From Escherichia coli (lineage in GTDB: Bacteria > Pseudomonadota > Gammaproteobacteria > Enterobacterales > Enterobacteriaceae), in assembly GCF_024502345.1 (NCBI RefSeq), contig NZ_JALDNN010000001.1: DNA of 64,000 nt; one strand, 5' to 3'. The stretch's first letter is position 1. Each line of letters begins with the position of its first letter. The position numbers and the translations under genes are program-made. Shown here one piece after another: positions 1-10,116 of the stretch. The notes beneath the pieces were generated by a model. That model was not told the DNA's origin, did no database searches, and saw nothing but the letters and a program-made list of their open reading frames with translations.

Positions 1-1
1 T

Positions 2-214
2 ATCAATCAGTTTGATGGAGATGGTATCTATGTATTTGGTTTTGATGATAAAATTTATGTCAAACGACTGCAAATGATACCTGACAAACTACTGGTGATT
101 TCTGATAACCAGATTTACCGTGAATGGGGAATTACCAGCGAAAATGAACACCGGTTTATGGTCTTTGGAAAGGTCTTAATCAGCCAGTCACAAACCCTTA
201 AGCGACACAATTAA
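2..214 (+). CDS. Lambda CI-like repressor, C-terminal S24 peptidase domain (5' part lies outside the window)
   Basis: Frame 2 is open from the window edge to TAA at 212-214. The tail ...IYVKRLQ...FMVFGKVLISQSQ resembles the lambda CI C-terminus (FKKL Lys, VVGKVIASQ). Hairpin follows. Confidence 0.55.
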   Translation: MNQFDGDGIYVFGFDDKIYVKRLQMIPDKLLVISDNQIYREWGITSENEHRFMVFGKVLISQSQTLKRHN

Positions 215-234
215 CCCTTACCTCCTCATCAATT

Positions 235-256
235 AGCCACCCAAAGGTGGCTTTTC
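235..256. terminator. Stem-loop agccacc-caaa-ggtggct followed by a short T run; putative terminator between convergent genes
   Basis: 7-bp perfect stem with 4-nt loop read directly, 20 nt after the repressor stop codon. Confidence 0.4.
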
Positions 257-649
257 ATTACCCTTTAAATTGCATATCTCGCAACAAAAACACTTGCATA
301 ATGCGCAACTTCATTTTATCTTTCTTTCCAGACAAACAAACAAGGTACTAACAAAATTTGGTTGTAACACGGCGTATGGCACATGCGTCGTTAGCGGTCT
401 GGGGACGTTAAAGGGGACAATCCACTCCTTGCTCGGGCAAACAAACCAGGTAGCCGGAATGTGCAAGTCAATGATGATGCTGATAAGACGCCTAACCAGC
501 GTGGCGATTCGGTTTGACGCCTGGGAAGAGACCAGGGTGCAACGATGAGGGCATTTATGGAGCCGCGACAAAGTGTGGTGCCGTAACTGGCTAAGTGCTC
601 TCAGCGTTGTGGTAATCCGCGAAATGGCGCGGCGGTAAGTATGGCGGGG

Positions 650-1255
650 TTACTCTTTCCCCGTTGAGGACACCGGATTGTCAGGTTGACCATACGCCTG
701 AGTGACAACAACCAGACGATTCAGGGCAGTATCATCCGCCTTTTCCGGTAACAGCCCATGCAGGTATACAAGTCCATCCCAGCGGCTGTTTTTTGGAATT
801 GGCAGCATCGGCGCTACATAGGCCTGAAAAGCCTGGCCTGTACGTTTAGCTGCCACATGAAAGAGACGGTCAAAGTTGGTAGTGACCAATCGAAGGGCAC
901 CCTCGCGGCTACGGGCTAAACGTAACAGCGCCGCCTGAGTATCAATAGCGCCCCTACGACGGAACTTTGGCTTAAGGGCTTTTTCCAACGCGCGTCGGAC
1001 GGCTATACGCTGCCCTGGTAAGCGCCGTTCCAGCAAATCTAATGTGCCGTCAAATTGCCCACGCTCGAAAACCTCACGCTCAATTTCTGAAAGTGTTGTT
1101 CCGTTCCTCTGGTAAATTAGTTCTACCAACCCTTTGAAACCAGGTAAACCAGCAGGGTAGGAAATGCCTGCTCCACAGAAGAACACAACGCGCCCTTCCT
1201 CGTGCGCCTGCAAAAGCTCATCAGGAATATCAGGGCCGTTGGTAATGAATTGCAT
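650..1255 (-). CDS. Short SIR2-like (sirtuin-family) protein, possibly truncated
   Basis: 201-aa ORF with FFCGAGIS near the N-terminus, then VTTNFD and YLHG (SIR2-type N/D/H catalytic motifs). About 100 aa shorter than a full SIR2 domain. The same frame stays open for 113 codons beyond the TAA. Confidence 0.5.
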   Translation of the reverse strand: MQFITNGPDIPDELLQAHEEGRVVFFCGAGISYPAGLPGFKGLVELIYQRNGTTLSEIEREVFERGQFDGTLDLLERRLPGQRIAVRRALEKALKPKFRRRGAIDTQAALLRLARSREGALRLVTTNFDRLFHVAAKRTGQAFQAYVAPMLPIPKNSRWDGLVYLHGLLPEKADDTALNRLVVVTQAYGQPDNPVSSTGKE

Positions 1256-1437
1256 TCCTTTTCCTCCTATCCAATGTGCACGTTCATTCGAGTAAATGAA
1301 GGCAAGGGGTTACATCTTATTATACCGACCGTGCAAATCCGGCTTCCTAGCAAGCTACTTTACTTGCCAACTCATAATGTCCGAACTCCGAACAAAGCGG
1401 ACTGCTAGATTTGATTGCGTTCTAGCTACGCAAAATA

Positions 1438-2661
1438 TCATTTCGAGCCTAAACGAGTACAAGTAACAATCGATTCAACTCTCTCCCACCATGCCTGGTA
1501 GGCTTTACGCTGTTCTTCTAGATAATCACTCTTGTCATAAACTTGCCATACACCTGGCAGTTTATGACCGAGCATTATTTCAGCAATATGAGGCGCAGTA
1601 AGATCAGAAAAGTTTGTTCGTGCTGTTCGTCTCAAATCATGAAGAGACCAATGAGGAAATTGATACCCCAAACGCCGCCATGCGTACTGCATTAAATTGT
1701 AAGGCAGCGACTGCAATGATGTCCGACCAACTGGTTCCCTGCTTCCTTCCTTAGTAAAAAGCATATCGGAACCGTTGTTCATAGAGATAACGTATTTTAT
1801 AAGCTCTTCAACCGGTTCAATAATGGGCCGCTTTAGCGGTTCGCCTGTTATATCCCCTGTCTTATGTCGTTCTGGTGGTACAGTCCATATTTTATTAATG
1901 AAATCAAAATCGTCCACCTTGGCAGTAATTAGCTCTGAACTACGGCAACCAAAATGCAGCAATAGTTTAATGAAGGCCCGGTATTTAGGAACCATTCGAG
2001 AACCATCGATCGCAGCATAAAGGATTTTAATTTCATCATGTGTCAGAAACCGTTTCTTCTGACCTTTACGGATATCCATATCTTTACCCGTGATATCCGA
2101 CAGCGGGCGAGTTTCAATGAGCTTTCTCTTATACGCCCAGACATGGGCCTGCTTTGCGTTAATTAGCAATCGGTCTGCTATTGCTGGAGTCTTAGTGCTA
2201 AGAGGCTCCAGGACTTCTAACCAATCATGCAATGTAGCTGCATCGTGAGGGATATTCCCGATTTTAGAGAACAGGTGCAGCTCAAACGAGCGGAGTATCT
2301 GTTCAGAACCTTTTTTATTTTTTACACAATATGCTTCATACCAAGCACGGATCACAGATTCTACCGTCATGGCTTCAGTAGCTTTACGTTTTTCTGCCAG
2401 CTTGACCAATCGTGGATTGCGGTTTGACTCGAGTTCACCACGAAGACGGATAACTTCTTCTCTGGCCTCTTTTAGTCCAGTTGCCGGGTAAGTTCCGATA
2501 TCAAGACGCTCACCTTTCCCCGCCCACTGATAACGATATTGGAACACTACGCGACCTTTCGGTGATACTCTAACAGACAGACCATCACGATCGGATTTAA
2601 CCAAAACCTTATCACGTTCCTTTCCAAGGACTGAACGCAACCACGCATCAGACAGCGCCAT
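1438..2661 (-). CDS. int: P4-family tyrosine integrase (site-specific recombinase)
   Basis: 407-aa ORF with N-terminal arm-binding-like region (GLSVRVSPKGRVVFQYRYQWAGKG) and C-terminal catalytic motifs (HDLRRTARTNF, HIAEIMLGH, VYD). Confidence 0.85.
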   Translation of the reverse strand: MALSDAWLRSVLGKERDKVLVKSDRDGLSVRVSPKGRVVFQYRYQWAGKGERLDIGTYPATGLKEAREEVIRLRGELESNRNPRLVKLAEKRKATEAMTVESVIRAWYEAYCVKNKKGSEQILRSFELHLFSKIGNIPHDAATLHDWLEVLEPLSTKTPAIADRLLINAKQAHVWAYKRKLIETRPLSDITGKDMDIRKGQKKRFLTHDEIKILYAAIDGSRMVPKYRAFIKLLLHFGCRSSELITAKVDDFDFINKIWTVPPERHKTGDITGEPLKRPIIEPVEELIKYVISMNNGSDMLFTKEGSREPVGRTSLQSLPYNLMQYAWRRLGYQFPHWSLHDLRRTARTNFSDLTAPHIAEIMLGHKLPGVWQVYDKSDYLEEQRKAYQAWWERVESIVTCTRLGSK

Positions 2662-2667
2662 TACTCA

Positions 2668-2735
2668 CCTTGTACAAATAACAAAAAACCTCTGCTGTTT
2701 TGTACATTATGTACAAGCACATGTACAGATTTTTG
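2668..2735. promoter_or_regulatory. Cluster of four TGTACA-like repeats just upstream of the integrase start; candidate arm-type or operator sites
   Basis: ttgtacaaat...ttgtacatta-tgtacaagc-acatgtacag read in the AT-rich region between the integrase start and yjjG. Confidence 0.3.
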
Positions 2736-3046
2736 ATGAAAGTAACCTGATCAATTTAAAGTTACATGAAAGAATTTTCAATCAAAGAAATCACATAACA
2801 TCATGTTATTAAATGAGTTATATAATTATCACTCAATTAATCGAAAGGATTTTGAAAGAGTAAAAGAGCTTTTATTTGGGCTTAATTATTGGGGTGAGAA
2901 ATAATGGCAAAAGTGCGGCGCTTCGCCACCTCTTGCAAATAAGGAGACAACGTCATAATTCTTTCTTCTTGAGTAAGCGGCATCGCGCCGCGCTTGTTGA
3001 AAACGAAAAATTGCGGCTATTTTACCCATCAACGGGGGGGAGGCAA

Positions 3047-3724
3047 TCAGTGTTTACACAGGAGCTGCTCCAGTTCGTGCAACGAAGAAACGGTCCAGGT
3101 GGGTGCGATGCCTTCTGGTTGCTCGCGATGGTGCGCATTCAGCCAGCAGGTCGCAAGCCCGGCGTTGATGCCACCGAGAATATCGGACTCGGCAGTGTCG
3201 CCAACCATCAGCACGCGTGAACGGTCAGGATTGCCCGCCTGTTCCAGCGCATAATCGAAAATTTTCTTATTCGGTTTGGCAACGCCAACTTCTTCGGAAA
3301 TCACCAGCAAATCGAAGTAATCACGCAGGCCCGTGCGTTCCAGACGCACTTGCTGCAAGGCGCTAAAGCCGTTGGTGATGATGCCGATTTTGGCGTTGCC
3401 ACAAATGGCGTTAAGCAGAGAAACCGCGCCCGGCAGCGGCGTACAGATTTCCGCCATCGCATTAATAAAGGCTTCGTTGAGTTTACCTGGCTCGACGTTC
3501 AGCCGTTCGGCCCAGCTCTCAAACCGCCCGTGCTGAAGCTGTAATGAAGTGATCGCGCCGTTTTGATAATCCACCCACAGTGGCTTGTTAACGGCCTGAT
3601 AGTCCTGAAAATCTTCAGCGGTAAAGGTGACGCTGTAATCAAGAAACATCCGCTGCAGGCCGGTGAATGAGTCAAAGGTAAACAGCGTTTCATCGGCATC
3701 AAAGAAAATCCAGTCCCACTTCAT
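3047..3724 (-). CDS. yjjG: Pyrimidine 5'-nucleotidase YjjG (HAD superfamily)
   Basis: 225-aa [21 protein letters not shown] motif I; recognised as YjjG. Confidence 0.9.
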
Positions 3725-3738
3725 TATTCCACCTTGTA

Positions 3739-4185
3739 TTACATACTGATTGGCAACGCCATGATGATGGCGTCTTCGCGACCGTCCGTGGTGGGGTAGT
3801 AATTGCGGCGAATCGTCGCCTCGTTAAAGCCTAAACTTTCGTACAGGGCAATGGCGGCAGCATTTGAAGCACGGACTTCCAGCCATAGTGTCGCCACGCC
3901 GCGTTTTTCCAGTTCGTCGATCAGATGTTCCAGCAGCGCCCTTCCCAATCCCTGACGCTGATAGTCAGGATCGACCGCAATATTGAACAATGTAGCTTCA
4001 TCCAGCACCACTTGCGTAATCGCAAACGCCGCCATTTTGCCGTTTTGCGTTAACTGAAAGTTGAGATAACGCTCGCCCTGGTTGCTGGCAAACGTTTTTT
4101 CACTCCACGGAAAGGCGTGGGCGCGTTGTTCAATGTGGTAAGCCGCTGGTAAATCAGTCGTTTCGAGGGAAGAAATCGTGTTCAT
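3739..4185 (-). CDS. rimI: Ribosomal protein S18 alanine N-acetyltransferase
   Basis: 148-aa GNAT-family ORF ([10 protein letters not shown] motif) in the conserved rimI position. Confidence 0.9.
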
Positions 4186-4567
4186 ATGTGCAAATTTGTT
4201 GCCATAACGCGGCGCGTGCCGTTGGGTTTGCCCGTAAATCGGTGAGCGCCGGTGATGCCACCTGAGCGCCTTCCAGTGATAGCGGTTCGTCAGTACCCAA
4301 CCGCCAGCTGTTGCAGCGACTGCCTTGCGGCAGCATCGCGATTTTTTCTGGCGTCAGTTGCAGCACTTGATCGGGGCTGACGGTTAATGCGCGCAGAACA
4401 TCGCTCACTAAAGGATCAGTCAGGGCGGGAAGATCGTTTGCCACCATCACCAGACGGACGTGTGCCGGGATCGCAATGGCAATCTCCCCCTGCAACGCGC
4501 CAGGGCGACGCAGCGACCACTGGGTAATGCCCAGTTGCTGTAACTGCCAGTCTCGTCGGGATGTCAT
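4154..4567 (-). CDS. holD: DNA polymerase III psi subunit
   Basis: 137-aa ORF overlapping the rimI start, matching the holD-rimI arrangement. Confidence 0.85.
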   Translation of the reverse strand: MTSRRDWQLQQLGITQWSLRRPGALQGEIAIAIPAHVRLVMVANDLPALTDPLVSDVLRALTVSPDQVLQLTPEKIAMLPQGSRCNSWRLGTDEPLSLEGAQVASPALTDLRANPTARAALWQQICTYEHDFFPRND

Positions 4568-4669
4568 AGCGAATCGCTCCTGTTGTCAGGGGCGCAAATA
4601 TAGCAAATTCGTCGATACCGCGCCAACATATGGCTATAATCGCCGCCAGTATCAATTGAGGAGCATTCC

Positions 4670-5701
4670 ATGTCTGCATTTACCCCGGCAAGTGAAGTCT
4701 TGCTGCGTCACAGTGATGATTTCGAACAAAGCCGTATTCTGTTTGCCGGAGACTTACAGGATGACCTGCCCGCGCGTTTAGATACCGCGGCCAGCCGTGC
4801 TCATACCCAGCAATTCCACCACTGGCAGGTGTTAAGCCGCCAGATGGGGGATAACGCCCGTTTTAGTCTGGTCGCCACGGCGGATGACGTCGCAGATTGC
4901 GATACGCTGATTTACTACTGGCCGAAGAACAAACCGGAAGCCCAGTTCCAGTTGATGAATTTACTTTCTCTGCTGCCGGTGGGGACGGATATTTTTGTCG
5001 TTGGCGAGAACCGCAGCGGCGTGCGCAGCGCCGAGCAGATGCTGGCAGATTATGCGCCGTTGAATAAAGTCGACAGCGCTCGTCGCTGTGGACTCTATTT
5101 TGGTCGTCTGGAAAAACAGCCAGTATTTGATGCGGATAAATTCTGGGGCGAATACAGCGTCGATGGCCTGACGGTCAAAACGCTGCCTGGCGTGTTTAGC
5201 CGCGACGGTCTGGATGTCGGTAGCCAGTTGCTGCTCTCGACGTTAACTCCGCACACGAAAGGTAAAGTGCTGGATGTCGGCTGTGGCGCGGGTGTGCTTT
5301 CAGTTGCCTTTGCGCGCCATTCGCCGAAAATTCGTCTCACCTTGTGCGATGTCTCTGCCCCGGCGGTAGAAGCCAGCCGCGCAACACTTGCGGCCAACGG
5401 TGTTGAAGGTGAAATCTTTGCCAGCAACGTCTTTTCCGAGGTGAAAGGTCGTTTTGATATGATCATCTCCAACCCGCCGTTCCACGATGGGATGCAAACC
5501 AGCCTGGATGCGGCGCAAACGCTGATTCGCGGCGCGGTGCGTCATCTTAATAGCGGCGGCGAGCTGCGAATTGTAGCGAACGCCTTCCTGCCTTACCCGG
5601 ACGTGCTGGATGAGACATTTGGCTTCCATGAAGTTATCGCGCAAACCGGGCGCTTCAAGGTGTATCGCGCCATTATGACCCGCCAGGCGAAGAAAGGTTA
5701 A
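4670..5701 (+). CDS. rsmC: 16S rRNA (guanine1207-N2)-methyltransferase
   Basis: 343-aa ORF with SAM-binding [11 protein letters not shown] and NPPFH motifs. Confidence 0.9.
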
Positions 5702-5714
5702 TTATCTCGCCGAA

Positions 5715-5850
<136 letters not shown>

Positions 5851-5968
5851 TCCTGATGGACATTTTTCCAGCAATTACACATCAGGCGATAATTAACTAT
5901 TGACGAAAAGCTGAAAACCACTAGAATGCGCCTCCGTGGTAGCAATTCTTTTTAAGAATTGATGGTAT

Positions 5969-6055
5969 GCGAAGGTGGCGGAATTGGTAGACGCGCTAGC
6001 TTCAGGTGTTAGTGTCCTTACGGACGTGGGGGTTCAAGTCCCCCCCCTCGCACCA
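5969..6055 (+). tRNA. leuQ: tRNA-Leu (anticodon CAG)
   Basis: 87-nt sequence gcgaaggtggcggaattggtagacgcg...tcgcacca with CAG anticodon loop and long variable arm; first of three tandem copies. Confidence 0.9.
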
Positions 6056-6083
6056 AAAACCACGTTGATATTGCTCGCACTGG

Positions 6084-6170
6084 GCGAAGGTGGCGGAATT
6101 GGTAGACGCGCTAGCTTCAGGTGTTAGTGTTCTTACGGACGTGGGGGTTCAAGTCCCCCCCCTCGCACCA
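6084..6170 (+). tRNA. leuP: tRNA-Leu (anticodon CAG)
   Basis: Second tandem copy; differs from copies 1 and 3 by one base (tgttctt vs tgtcctt) in the variable region. Confidence 0.9.
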
Positions 6171-6204
6171 AACGAGGCGATATCAAAAAAAGTAAGATGA
6201 CTGT

Positions 6205-6291
6205 GCGAAGGTGGCGGAATTGGTAGACGCGCTAGCTTCAGGTGTTAGTGTCCTTACGGACGTGGGGGTTCAAGTCCCCCCCCTCGCACCA
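6205..6291 (+). tRNA. leuV: tRNA-Leu (anticodon CAG)
   Basis: Third tandem copy, identical to copy 1. Confidence 0.9.
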
Positions 6292-6329
6292 ATTATCTTT
6301 ACTTCCTTTCTTGTTTCTTCCCTGTTTTG

Positions 6330-6566
6330 TCATCCCTGATTCAAATTCATTATCATCAGCATGATGCCAGCAATAAGCGCCAGGCACGATGGTAGCAAAA
6401 TGTAATGCCGCAACTGTTTGTGATACAGCATCACCGGCGTCAATACTAATCCCATCAGAATTACAATCCGCCACTGATCCGGCGATAAATCCGCATACAT
6501 CAGCCCTGCAATCAGCAATCCCGGCAGCAACACTCCCCAGCCACTGCCCAGCGTACGTTGCAACAT
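6330..6566 (-). CDS. yjjZ: Small membrane protein YjjZ
   Basis: 78-aa hydrophobic product from the internal Met (MLQRTLGSGWGVLLPGLLIAG...) of the 115-aa track ORF, in the fhuF-leuV gap. Confidence 0.55.
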   Translation of the reverse strand: MLQRTLGSGWGVLLPGLLIAGLMYADLSPDQWRIVILMGLVLTPVMLYHKQLRHYILLPSCLALIAGIMLMIMNLNQG

Positions 6567-6706
6567 GGTTTCATCTCTTTCATTGATAATGATAACCAAT
6601 ATCATATGATAATTCTTATCATTTGCAAGCCAGAGAAATCCCTTGCTATCGGGTAAACCTATCGCTAGGATTAGCAATCATTATCATTTAGATTACTATC
6701 CCGATT

Positions 6707-7495
6707 ATGGCCTATCGTTCCGCACCGCTCTATGAAGATGTCATCTGGCGAACACATCTCCAGCCGCAGGATGCTGGGCTTGCACAAGCCGTACGGGCGA
6801 TGATCGCCAAACATCGTGAACATTTGCTCGAGTTTATCCGCCTGGATGAACCCGCTCCGCTTAACGCCATGACGCTGGCGCAATGGTCATCACCGAATGC
6901 GCTAAGTTCTCTACTGGCGGTCTATTCCGATCATATCTATCGCAACCAACCAACGATGATCCGCGAGAACAAACCGCTGATCTCACTATGGGCACAATGG
7001 TATATCGGCCTGATGGTGCCACCATTAATGCTGGCGCTACTGACGCAGGAAAAGGCATTAGATGTGTCGCCGGAACATTTCCATGCTGAGTTTCACGAAA
7101 CCGGACGCGTCGCCTGTTTCTGGGTCGATGTGTGTGAAGATAAAAACGCAACACCACATTCGCCGCAGCATCGAATGGAAACGTTAATCAGCCAGGCGCT
7201 GGTTCCGGTTGTGCAAGCACTAGAAGCGACCGGAGAGATCAACGGCAAACTTATCTGGAGTAATACCGGTTATTTGATCAACTGGTATCTCACTGAGATG
7301 AAGCAACTGCTCGGCGAGGCTACTGTTGAATCGCTGCGTCATGCCCTCTTTTTTGAGAAAACGCTCACGAACGGTGAAGATAATCCACTCTGGCGTACCG
7401 TGGTGCTACGCGACGGCCTGCTGGTGCGCCGCACTTGCTGCCAGCGTTATCGCTTACCGGATGTGCAGCAATGTGGCGATTGTACGCTGAAATGA
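6707..7495 (+). CDS. fhuF: Ferric-siderophore reductase FhuF
   Basis: 262-aa ORF ending in the 2Fe-2S Cys cluster CCQRYRLPDVQQCGDC. Confidence 0.9.
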   Translation: MAYRSAPLYEDVIWRTHLQPQDAGLAQAVRAMIAKHREHLLEFIRLDEPAPLNAMTLAQWSSPNALSSLLAVYSDHIYRNQPTMIRENKPLISLWAQWYIGLMVPPLMLALLTQEKALDVSPEHFHAEFHETGRVACFWVDVCEDKNATPHSPQHRMETLISQALVPVVQALEATGEINGKLIWSNTGYLINWYLTEMKQLLGEATVESLRHALFFEKTLTNGEDNPLWRTVVLRDGLLVRRTCCQRYRLPDVQQCGDCTLK

Positions 7496-7532
7496 AAGCA
7501 CTGCCGGGGAAGTAAACCCGGCATCATGCGGA

Positions 7533-8210
7533 TTAATAGGGATGCAACACATTACTTGTTTCGCAATGCCGCATACATAACAGAATATCTGCGGCCTCCA
7601 ACAACCCTGCGTCAGAACTGACGCCCAGTTTCGACATCACATTAAATTTATGTGCACGGATCGTTTTGATATTGCGTTTAAGCTGCTCGGCAATTTGTGT
7701 CATTGAGTAGCCACGCGACATAAAGCGCAATATTTCTCTCTCCGTCGGGCTTAACGTCCGGCTTTGGTTAATGTACCACTGATTGTTCAGTCGGTCGGTC
7801 GCCTGACGTACACCATTTAATGACAAAAAGAGTTCCTGATGAAAAATCTCCAGCGTTGACGCTTTACTTAATACACCGTCCAGCGGTGATGGCGACAATG
7901 AACCAATCAGCCGAGCTTCAATATCATCATCCGCAATAACTAAACGCCGGGTACGCGGAAACTTAATCGCCAGTTCAGTCAGGCAAGATAATCCCTCTCT
8001 GCGCTCACTTCTCATGGCAGAAAAAGAAAAAATGACCGCCGCAAACGAGATCCGCGACATGGCATCCTGAAATGACTCCTGACTGGTATAGGTATGGAGC
8101 TTATAAGGGTTGCCCGCAAACTTTCTGAATAAACTCTCAATACCGATACTACTCATGACGCATTTTTCTATGAGTGCGACATTTCTCTTCTTAATTCGGC
8201 AGTGTTCCAT
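7533..8210 (-). CDS. bglJ: LuxR-family transcriptional activator BglJ
   Basis: 225-aa ORF with C-terminal LuxR-type HTH ([25 protein letters not shown]); overlaps the yjjQ 3' end. Confidence 0.85.
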
Positions 8211-8371
8211 TCTGCGGCATCTCCATAAACAGAAGGCAAGTTAAGTTCTCTTGCACCCTGCGCGCTATTTATCCATGCATACATTTCAGCGTTGCTGTGA
8301 ATTGCCAGTCGACGCATCGCACTGTTTTTTTGGGCGCTGATAGTTTTATTACTTTTCTTAAGCAATGAAGC
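8168..8371 (-). pseudogene. yjjQ: yjjQ 3' fragment (C-terminal 67 codons), separated from the 5' part by IS30
   Basis: Encodes ...[65 protein letters not shown]. Together with 9593-10116 (minus the 2-bp duplication) it restores a 726-nt, 241-aa LuxR-family gene. Confidence 0.85.
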
Positions 8372-9592
8372 TGTAGATTCAATTGGTCAACGCAACAGTT
8401 ATGTGAAAACATGGGGTTGCGGAGGTTTTTTGAATGAGACGAACATTTACAGCAGAGGAAAAAGCCTCTGTTTTTGAACTATGGAAGAACGGAACAGGCT
8501 TCAGTGAAATAGCGAATATCCTGGGTTCAAAACCCGGAACGATCTTCACTATGTTAAGGGATACTGGCGGCATAAAACCCCATGAGCGTAAGCGGGCTGT
8601 AGCTCACCTGACACTGTCTGAGCGCGAGGAGATACGAGCTGGTTTGTCAGCCAAAATGAGCATTCGTGCGATAGCTACTGCGCTGAATCGCAGTCCTTCG
8701 ACGATCTCACGTGAAGTTCAGCGTAATCGGGGCAGACGCTATTACAAAGCTGTTGATGCTAATAACCGAGCCAACAGAATGGCGAAAAGGCCAAAACCGT
8801 GCTTACTGGATCAAAATTTACCATTGCGAAAGCTTGTTCTGGAAAAGCTGGAGATGAAATGGTCTCCAGAGCAAATATCAGGATGGTTAAGGCGAACAAA
8901 ACCACGTCAAAAAACGCTGCGAATATCACCTGAGACAATTTATAAAACGCTGTACTTTCGTAGCCGTGAAGCGCTACACCACCTGAATATACAGCATCTG
9001 CGACGGTCGCATAGCCTTCGCCATGGCAGGCGTCATACCCGCAAAGGCGAAAGAGGTACGATTAACATAGTGAACGGAACACCAATTCACGAACGTTCCC
9101 GAAATATCGATAACAGACGCTCTCTGGGGCATTGGGAGGGCGATTTAGTCTCAGGTACAAAAAACTCTCATATAGCCACACTTGTAGACCGAAAATCACG
9201 TTATACGATCATCCTTAGACTCAGGGGCAAAGATTCTGTCTCAGTAAATCAGGCTCTTACCGACAAATTCCTGAGTTTACCGTCAGAACTCAGAAAATCA
9301 CTGACATGGGACAGAGGAATGGAACTGGCCAGACATCTAGAATTTACTGTCAGCACCGGCGTTAAAGTTTACTTCTGCGATCCTCAGAGTCCTTGGCAGC
9401 GGGGAACAAATGAGAACACAAATGGGCTAATTCGGCAGTACTTTCCTAAAAAGACATGTCTTGCCCAATATACTCAACATGAACTAGATCTGGTTGCTGC
9501 TCAGCTAAACAACAGACCGAGAAAGACACTGAAGTTCAAAACACCGAAAGAGATAATTGAAAGGGGTGTTGCATTGACAGATTGAATCTACA
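8372..9592 (+). mobile_element. IS30: IS30 insertion sequence (1221 bp) with 2-bp GC target-site duplication
   Basis: Left end tgtagattcaattggtcaacgcaacag, right end ...attgaatctaca (inverted repeat); flanking GC at 8370-8371 and 9593-9594; single 383-aa transposase. Confidence 0.9.
8434..9585 (+). CDS. insI: IS30-family transposase
   Basis: 383-aa ORF with N-terminal HTH and DDE region (HWEGDLV...), recognised as the IS30 transposase. Confidence 0.9.
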
Positions 9593-10116
9593 GCTATCTG
9601 GTTGATGCCCCATCCTTTACCTAGTAGCCGCAGTACCTTGCGCTCTGAAAGAGTGAGAATGACGGAGCGATAGCTAAAATCATGAGTTTCAGTCATTGCC
9701 GGGGAGGTCAGCATGGTGCTGATACGCTCTGCGTGCGTATTGCCGGAACGTACGGTCTTGACCAGATTCTCAATGGGTTCAACATCAGACAATAACGTCG
9801 CCGTAGGGCACATGAGTAATTCTACTGCCTGGGAATACCAGGAGCGTGACACCATGAAAACCCAGTGAATTTCCCGATATTGTGAGATTAAAGAATAATA
9901 ATGTTCACAAACAGAACGTGGATCTTCACTTTCACCGGCTAAATCAGCAATGACTAATCCGGAACGACGTAATTGTAATAAGGTAAGGTTCTCCGCAGAG
10001 GCGCTGGATATTATTTCATATTCAGGGAAGTGAGTCCTCATGACCTCTTTTAACCCTGCTTGCATAACAGGTATTTTACTGATAACAATTCCATTTTTGC
10101 AGCATCCTGGCAACAT
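9593..10116 (-). pseudogene. yjjQ: yjjQ 5' fragment (N-terminal part), interrupted by IS30
   Basis: [25 protein letters not shown]...GWGINQIA then reads into the IS30 end. Confidence 0.85.

Follow-up and report, generated by a model that had tools for sequence, protein, structure and literature searches.

The attL end of a probable lambdoid prophage remnant in the 5′ end of prfC beside yjjG in Escherichia coli

The window analysed here is a stretch of 64,000 nucleotides of Escherichia coli (NCBI RefSeq assembly GCF_024502345.1, contig NZ_JALDNN010000001.1), and the features at its left end are collected in Table 1. To the right of yjjG, which is intact host flank outside the element, lie rimI, holD, rsmC and three tRNA-Leu genes, i.e. 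the K-12 order reversed. An Rfam scan of window 1-10000 returned these three tRNA-Leu genes and nothing else; they are the tRNAs closest to the junction (5969-6291), and the junction itself is without a tRNA, in agreement with the non-tRNA attachment site proposed in an earlier, sequence-only reading of this DNA. On the other side lie the start of an integrase gene, which faces the junction so that the gene is transcribed away from it, a SIR2-like ORF and, convergent with this ORF, the end of a repressor gene of XRE/CI type. The sequence-only reading had recognised the integrase and its direction, the TGTACA repeats before it and the convergent CI-like repressor, and had placed between yjjG and prfC a mobile element of which only the integrase-proximal end is in the window; all of this holds, and the 5′ end of prfC is found stranded beside yjjG. 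The promoter-like and terminator-like sites in Table 1 come from consensus matching, in which matches were no commoner than in shuffled sequence, and they serve as hints only.

Table 1. Features at the left end of the window (strand: +, as given; -, complementary;., without strand)
Feature	Position	Strand	Description
3′ end of CI-like repressor gene	1-214	+	Last 70 codons, Peptidase_S24 autocleavage domain; start lies left of the window
Terminator-like hairpin	235-252	+	Just 3′ of the repressor gene; pattern match in consensus scan only
Two operator-like half-palindromes, TTGCATATCTCGCAA and TTGCATAATGCGCAA	270-308	.	15 bp each, 24 bp apart
Truncated dsr1	650-1255	-	SIR2_2 match; 201-aa pseudogene product
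Deletion junction	707-709	.	3-bp microhomology AAC; 6772 bp missing relative to intact prophage
Tyrosine integrase gene (int)	1438-2661	-	407 aa, intact; Arm-DNA-bind_3, Phage_int_M and Phage_integrase domains
Phage-derived P′ arm of attL	2662-2891	-	AT-rich spacer and int upstream region
Four TGTACA repeats	2671-2727	.	Copies at 2671, 2701, 2710 and 2722; 10-66 bp upstream of int start
Promoter-like site in P′ arm	2781-2753	-	Consensus match only
att core ATTATTTCTCACCC	2892-2905	-	14-bp identity block common to attB, attP, attL and attR
Orphaned host prfC 5′ end	2892-2956	-	65 nt (22-residue translation), matching K-12 prfC exactly as far as the core
Native yjjG-prfC spacer	2957-3046	-	90 bp, identical to K-12 in alignment
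Promoter-like site in yjjG-prfC spacer	3046-3019	-	Consensus match only
yjjG	3047-3724	-	Intact host flank, outside the element

The attachment core was located by aligning attL of the window with K-12 attB, the attP sites of phages cdtI and Ayreon, and the attR site of strain Z1322HEC0001. In this five-way comparison the core lies inside the 5′ end of prfC, at codons 17-22, and the window attL is composed of the left half of the host attB, the shared core and the right half of the phage attP, with one consistent crossover at ATTATTTCTCACCC. Sequence to the right of the core aligns with the cdtI and Ayreon attP, and window 1414-2933, which includes the P′ arm, is 95-96% identical to the attP-int region of these two phages. 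The attachment site had earlier been sought in the 3′ end of yjjG or in the yjjG-prfC spacer, but alignment of the junction with that of island-free K-12 leaves both unaltered and puts the crossover within prfC. The orphaned prfC reading frame continues into phage DNA until a stop at 2882, and RefSeq labels the corresponding stretch in relatives as an incomplete CDS. The promoter-like site of the spacer would now read towards attL and int, and transcription might read through into int.

The prfC 5′ site is already published for phage cdtI, for Stx1a/Stx2c phages and for SXT/R391 elements. The integrases of cdt1 phage and SXT share one cluster, which inserts next to prfC (PMC8138268), the Stx1a/Stx2c prophages of STEC CC119 sit at prfC (PMC10132054), and prfC is listed among genes split by prophages (PMC3603311). 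Moreover, the 14-bp core matches positions 1-14 of the 17-bp site ATcATcTCtCACCCtGA that SXT/R391 elements use in prfC (PMC9058013). When genome contigs were scanned for the published 17-mer ATCATCTCTCACCCTGA, at least 120 loci were found, with no homologous integrase nearby among the matches listed.

In relatives, the element is a lambdoid prophage of ∼49 kb; the earlier term ‘integrative element’ was correct as to mobility and undersold what the element is. The integrase gene and its arm occur at high identity in 700 of 5426 complete E. coli genomes, and relatives with this int and attL carry phage genes and no conjugation genes, relaxase or type IV secretion genes. In the intact prophage of Z1322HEC0001, int and dsr1 precede the early genes; cI/cro, Q and genes for lysis, terminase, head and tail come next, and DinI and a hybrid prfC close the series. 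Against the intact relative (coordinates denoted L001), window 1-709 equals L001 4520-5228 (100%) and window 707-3100 equals L001 12001-14394 (99.96%), and the deletion between them fuses codon 183 of dsr1 to a point that lies 495 bp downstream from the gene of the cI-like repressor. Lost in it are 86% of dsr1, the excisionase gene (its homologue lies at L001 8325-8516) and the early-left genes DUF551, yfdS, yfdR, yfdQ and yfdP; a tblastn search for xis over the first 10 kb of the window found none.

The SIR2-like ORF named in the sequence-only reading is present and matches SIR2_2, but its identity as a truncated gene was overlooked, as were the deletion junction and the first 65 nt of prfC. 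Its product consists of codons 1-183 of the 1275 of dsr1 (707-1255) and 18 unrelated codons. The N-terminal 183 residues fit Dsr1 models almost perfectly and keep, as read off the sequence, the GAGIS, TTNFD and YLHG motifs, but as 14% of the protein they score far below cut-off: NCBIfam NF041818 (Dsr1) is matched over model positions 1-189 of 1263 with 333 bits versus a cut-off of 1400, and the PADLOC Dsr1 match covers 1-189 of 1275. In comparison, Dsr1 of the intact relative, encoded by a full-length gene at L001 8722-12549, reaches 2058 bits on NF041818. Based on these similarities, the ORF is identified as a dsr1 pseudogene fragment. Dsr1 is defence-associated sirtuin 1 according to PMC10952713, which cites Gao et al. 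2020 and Garb et al. 2022. No functional Dsr1 would be left in this lineage, and its defence would be lost.

The exact deletion junction is absent from 5426 complete E. coli genomes and from a set of one genome per GTDB species. The exact 201-aa fusion ORF, however, is recorded in 157 blocks of independent assemblies (draft and metagenome), and thus the junction is not an assembly error. One fusion-carrying assembly is 99.99% identical to window 1-8372, and in such assemblies cI, cro, Q, lysis genes and terminase continue to the left of the equivalent of the window. The source genome could be read only to position 1; the attR end and the completeness of the element are deduced from relatives. 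A lookup of the hybrid PrfC, intended to tie attR to the deletion lineage, showed that the allele is common and did not return the fusion-carrying assemblies. Taken together, window 1-2905 very probably represents the attL end, on the integrase side, of a lambdoid prophage that belongs in type with cdtI, Ayreon and the CC119 Stx phages and has decayed by deletion.

A fully functional, inducible prophage, in which the apparent deletion is just a shorter natural variant, would explain the intact int, the intact attL and a repressor gene that is undamaged at least in its C-terminal part, and cargo in this slot does vary between prophages; its uncharacterised occupants include a 331-aa protein in UTI89 and one of 345 aa in strain 377323_2f. 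We consider a functional prophage very improbable: dsr1 breaks off within a domain and continues into unrelated sequence, xis is gone, and near-identical relatives have a second deletion of 5.27 kb that removes replication genes. Since the deletion took the excisionase gene, the decayed prophage is probably locked in, although for some tyrosine integrases excision does occur, at a low rate, in the absence of Xis.

The integrase is 406/407 identical to that of an intact prophage, and 97-99% identical over 99-100% of its length to the integrases of cdtI, Ayreon, 2H10 and Stx1a/Stx2c phages (98.5% for cdt1 phage, 97% for the Stx1a/Stx2c prophages). Among homologues down to 50% identity, R240, K267, R344, H366 and Y375 are invariant and H341 is nearly so; the N-terminal DUF4102 / Arm-DNA-bind_3 domain and the catalytic domain with its R-K-H-R-H-Y residues are both present, which bears out the earlier view that the integrase is not degraded. 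Its description as ‘P4-family’ was right as far as the DUF4102-type arm-binding domain is concerned and wrong in class, as the score on NCBIfam PRK09692, the P4-like integrase model, is 65.8 bits versus a cut-off of 434. The integrase of cdt1 phage sits in the SXT cluster and outside the tRNA-targeting P4 cluster (PMC8138268), and on this published placing we assign the integrase of the window to the prfC-targeting (SXT-cluster) type.

These data bear on the view of the sequence-only reading that an island with an integrase of the P4 family, here taken as non-phage, had inserted at the yjjG 3′ end or in the yjjG-prfC spacer, which is consistent with the missing tRNA, the P4-type arm-binding domain and the mere 3 kb of element visible in the window. 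It is highly improbable, since the attB/attP/attL/attR alignment refutes insertion at either place, with yjjG and the spacer identical to K-12 and the crossover inside prfC, and since identical and near-identical copies reside in ∼49-kb lambdoid prophages and sequenced phage genomes. An island of the tRNA-type P4 class is rejected on the junction without tRNA and the low PRK09692 score.

SXT, too, has a CI-like repressor, SetR. An integrative conjugative element of the SXT/R391 type, surviving as a remnant, would accordingly account for the repressor, for the shared 5′-prfC target with overlapping core and for the clustering of the near-identical cdt1 phage integrase with IntSXT (PMC8138268), but is scarcely credible and was rejected, as the integrase is that of phages at 97-99% identity and the adjoining DNA of relatives holds cI/cro, Q, lysis, terminase, head and tail genes and neither relaxase nor type IV secretion genes.

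The TGTACA repeats would be the sites recognised by the integrase. Four copies within 57 bp have a Poisson probability of ∼1e-5 after correction for all positions, while the whole 64 kb holds 7 copies versus 10.4 expected from shuffles. In cdtI and Ayreon, four copies are found on each arm of attP. Moreover, in differing surrounding sequence, 3-4 copies stand in the same place upstream of integrases of 85, 64, 61 and 51% identity from Salmonella, Xenorhabdus, Serratia and Shewanella, and in each of these four other genera the homologue occupies the prfC 5′ site. Because they are kept on both attP arms and upstream of homologues down to 51% identity, the repeats are probably arm-type Int binding sites, which makes the conserved motif a testable candidate. 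On the arm in the window they lie between the start codon of int and its possible promoter, and Int may therefore also repress its own gene. A search of the literature gave no relevant hit for TGTACA in connection with integrase and attP. It is conceivable, though rather unlikely in our judgement, that TGTACA serves as the arm site throughout the clade of prfC-targeting integrases, with SXT/R391 perhaps among them, that it may be undescribed, and that Int bound there could both control its own gene and alter RF3 expression in lysogens. One TGTACA cluster lies over the int upstream region, and the other would lie over the phage-supplied promoter and the 5′ end of the hybrid prfC.

To the left of the deletion, window 1-214 is 100% identical to prophage genes annotated as ‘XRE family transcriptional regulator’ in many E. 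coli genomes, and the counterpart of the repressor gene in the intact relative is L001 4041-4733. The pattern TTGC-N7-GCAA has exactly two matches in 64 kb, namely TTGCATATCTCGCAA and TTGCATAATGCGCAA, and it recurs between cI and cro in the intact relative (L001 4006). The segment carrying the two matches is probably the OL/pL region of the prophage, a function predicted from this pattern. The small ORFs at 270-548 (+) and 311-571 (-) matched no PHROG family and are probably not genes.

These results suggest the following history of the decayed prophage. A tyrosine integrase of the SXT cluster would have recombined the phage attP with the 14-bp core in the 5′ end of prfC, most likely with its N-terminal domain bound to the TGTACA repeats as arm-type sites, and integration would have stranded the first 65 nt of prfC beside yjjG. 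Beyond the window, at the other end of the prophage, prfC would receive from the phage a substitute start and its first 16 codons, and hence RF3 should still be made. The slot between int and xis would have held the anti-phage sirtuin gene dsr1 as cargo, until this lineage lost 6772 bp through an illegitimate deletion with microhomology of AAC. The outcome would be a grounded remnant in which the integrase and attL are intact, without Xis for excision and without functional Dsr1.

The element belongs to a common, already described type of prophage and is not novel in kind. Phage cdtI (NC_009514), Ayreon, 2H10 and the CC119 Stx1a/Stx2c prophages resemble the window in integrase, attP arm, core and prfC site, and the cdtI-type phages share with this element the layout of attP, int, a cargo gene, and convergent xis and DUF551/yfdS/yfdR/yfdQ early genes. 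They differ in cargo, which is dsr1 here and a BovA (Borvo, CHAT-domain) gene in cdtI and Ayreon, and in the deletion, which here removed dsr1, xis and early-left genes. SXT/R391 elements are conjugative, whereas the present element is a phage by the genes of its relatives, but both use the same prfC 5′ target, overlapping sites and integrases of one published cluster, that of cdt1 phage. As Hochhut and Waldor are said to have found in 1999, SXT supplies a new 5′ end of prfC. As in lambda, attP has a short core and two AT-rich arms, each with several copies of a short repeat, and the integrase, like lambda Int, has a separate N-terminal arm-binding domain. What differs from lambda is the repeat, here the palindromic TGTACA, the position of the core within a protein-coding gene, and the direction of int, which is read from the att arm inwards and convergent with xis, whereas lambda int is read from pL through xis.

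The main value of these results is correct annotation: the yjjG-prfC gap is a known prophage hotspot and not the site of a new kind of island, and the ‘SIR2’ ORF should read dsr1 pseudogene. As a useful by-product, the att core of this phage group is defined to the base, and it coincides with the site of SXT/R391. Moreover, the int-xis slot of these prophages, in which Dsr1, Borvo and uncharacterised genes have been found, is a place of changing defence cargo.

The minus strand from window position 2956 reads ATGACGTTGTCTCCTTATTTGCAAGAGGTGGCGAAGCGCCGCACTTTTGCCATTATTTCTCACCC, which is identical to the first 65 nt of K-12 prfC, the start of which lies 90 bp past yjjG in that strain. Five sequences were aligned around this site, namely K-12 attB, the window, the other prophage end of strain Z1322HEC0001 and the intact attP of phages cdtI and Ayreon. 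In this alignment, attL is composed of the left half of attB, the core and the right half of attP, attR of the left half of attP, the core and the right half of attB, and a 14-bp core is common to all five sequences. The sequence-only reading had proposed the yjjG 3′ end or the yjjG-prfC spacer as the attachment site, to be checked against an uninterrupted yjjG-prfC junction; the comparison with K-12 did define attL, attR and the core, and it moved the site. Because the core lies inside prfC, and yjjG and the spacer (2957-3046) were left unaltered by the insertion, the crossover is at prfC codons 17-22 and both proposed sites are untouched. The phage attP supplies a start codon and a diverged version of the first prfC codons, and prfC is still open after integration, one codon shorter (1587 bp versus 1590 bp); the assembly collection records the exact 528-aa hybrid RF3 in 18,652 blocks. 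When the 17-bp site published for SXT/R391, ATcATcTCtCACCCtGA (PMC9058013), is compared with the prophage core, the 14 bp overlap position for position.

Features at the start of the window
Feature	Position	Strand	Remark
CI/LexA-type repressor	1-214	+	C-terminal S24-peptidase part
SIR2-like ORF	650-1255	-	SIR2_2 match
Integrase ORF, 407 aa	1438-2661	-	Arm-DNA-bind_3, Phage_int_M and Phage_integrase domains
TGTACA, four copies	2671, 2701, 2710, 2722		before the integrase
att core, ATTATTTCTCACCC, 14 bp	2892-2905	-	common to all five aligned sequences
yjjG	3047-3724	-	host flank
Three tRNA-Leu(CAG) genes	5969-6291

The gene content first described at this junction was recovered in full, i.e. an integrase pointing away from yjjG and preceded by TGTACA-like repeats, a SIR2-like ORF, a lambda-CI-like repressor gene and no tRNA at the junction itself. 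The window runs in reverse of the K-12 chromosome, and yjjG is followed by rimI, holD, rsmC, the three tRNA-Leu(CAG) genes, yjjZ, fhuF and bglJ. Just downstream of bglJ, a complete IS30 (1221 bp, 8372-9592; inverted repeats TGTAGATTCAATTGG..., 2-bp target duplication GC) splits yjjQ.

The integrase shares 97-99% identity with its counterparts in Enterobacteria phage cdtI and Escherichia phages Ayreon, 2H10 and PhiR63_1, and likewise with those in many Stx1a and Stx2c phages, the prophages of which have been described at prfC (PMC10132054). prfC is also listed among the genes split by prophages (PMC3603311), and the cdt1 phage integrase and IntSXT form one prfC-inserting cluster (PMC8138268). 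In Z1322HEC0001, int and attL are 99.96% identical to the window and begin a ∼49-kb lambdoid prophage with the order int, dsr1, DUF551, yfdS, yfdR, yfdQ, yfdP, cI, cro, replication genes, Q, lysis, terminase, lambda-like head/tail, DinI and hybrid prfC. An SXT/R391-type conjugative element would share the prfC site, yet the relatives carry phage genes, and this candidate was rejected in favour of a phage. The sequence-only reading correctly recognized a mobile element at a non-tRNA site; the site that it named and the kind of element were wrong. At megablast level, int with its arm was found in 700 of the 5426 complete E. coli genomes, nearly all at >90% identity. Prophage junctions of this type are already known and occur commonly in E. 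coli, and the one in the window has decayed; of its details, just two are mildly new, the TGTACA motif conserved on the arm and a core that coincides exactly with the SXT/R391 site.

Against the Dsr1 models (NCBIfam, PADLOC), the match of the SIR2-like ORF is limited to positions 1-189 of ∼1270, with a score of 333 bits versus a cut-off of 1400 and 2058 bits for the 1275-aa protein of the intact relative; Dsr1 is a known anti-phage, NAD+-depleting protein (PMC10952713). By BLAST, window 1-709 corresponds to 4520-5228 of the Z1322HEC0001 locus (L001) and window 707-3100 to L001 12001-14394. Since these segments map apart on L001, the window lacks 6772 bp, and AAC is all that the deletion ends share. 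The deletion took the last 1092 codons of dsr1, DUF551, yfdS, yfdR, yfdQ, yfdP and the excisionase gene xis, which is unannotated at L001 8325-8516 and 97% identical to cdtI gp34; no xis homologue was found by tblastn across the window's first 10 kb. The junction occurs in 0 of 5426 complete E. coli genomes and 0 GTDB species representatives. Draft and metagenome assemblies do contain the exact 201-aa fusion protein, in 157 recorded blocks, which makes the junction a real one, carried by a lineage.

One draft genome with the same fusion is 99.99% identical to window 1-8372, lacks the IS30, and carries, left of the window, the rest of cI, cro, a truncated CII-like gene, Q, lysis genes and terminase. 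Relatives sharing the window deletion have a second one of 5.27 kb (locus L014 12392-12394 versus Z1322HEC0001 3784024-3789294, again with a 3-bp overlap), known from these relatives because its site falls left of the window start. It starts within the CII-like ymfL, stops shortly ahead of the Q antiterminator gene and takes replication, methylase, RusA and KilA-N genes. On these sequences, the element is best read as a defective prophage that has been grounded, with int and attL intact and with xis, the defence gene and, in relatives, the replication genes lost. In strain 2013C-4974 (L004 6111-9549), a frameshifted IS3-family element lies between a truncated yfdQ and a 540-aa shortened dsr1, a separate decay event, and hence the int-proximal prophage region has been damaged at least twice.

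The TGTACA cluster is not due to chance, as the whole 64-kb window holds just seven copies, versus 10.4 expected from shuffles. Intact attP of cdtI and Ayreon has four copies per arm, at -183, -114, -86 and -74 and at +178, +190, +199 and +229 from the core, and the window repeats correspond to the latter group, situated between 10 and 66 bp ahead of the int start codon. Integrase homologues from Salmonella (85% identity), Xenorhabdus (64%), Serratia (61%) and Shewanella (51%) were compared, and each of the four adjoins a stranded 5′ end of prfC that includes a core-like sequence (ATTATTTCTCACCC, ATAATTTCCCACCC, ATTATCTCGCACCC and ATCATATCGCACCC), followed by an unrelated AT-rich spacer and 3-4 TGTACA copies within ∼80 nt of the int ATG. 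Motif number and place are thus kept while the surroundings diverge and, together with the arm-binding domain of the integrase, suggest that the repeats are putative arm-type Int sites. A weak promoter-like match at 2781-2753 (minus strand), of a kind no commoner than in shuffles, would place the repeats between promoter and start codon, and this position would allow int autoregulation.

Downstream of the repressor gene, at 270-308, the window has its only two matches to TTGC-N7-GCAA, a pair of 15-bp half-palindromes spaced 24 bp apart, and the intact relative has a third copy between cI and cro (L001 4006). They are probably CI operators, OL and OR; with the deletion in place, transcription from pL would run antisense into what is left of dsr1 and into int.

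The int-xis slot of prfC prophages carries cargo that differs by strain (comparison loci L005 6352-8484, L020 4684-5679 and L021 4849-5886), with Dsr1 in 75 of 5426 genomes; in cdtI and Ayreon, by comparison, it holds a BovA (Borvo, CHAT-domain) gene. The slot proteins of UTI89 (331 aa) and 377323_2f (345 aa) have no Pfam match and no convincing PADLOC match (one 2TM effector model, E = 0.0055), and their genes are candidate unknown defence genes. Cargo is variable at the prophage end beside hybrid prfC too (L022-L031), mostly adjoining the conserved DinI gene, and includes reverse transcriptase with TIR, reverse transcriptase with SLATT, an NleG effector, a YadA-like adhesin and an alpha/beta hydrolase.
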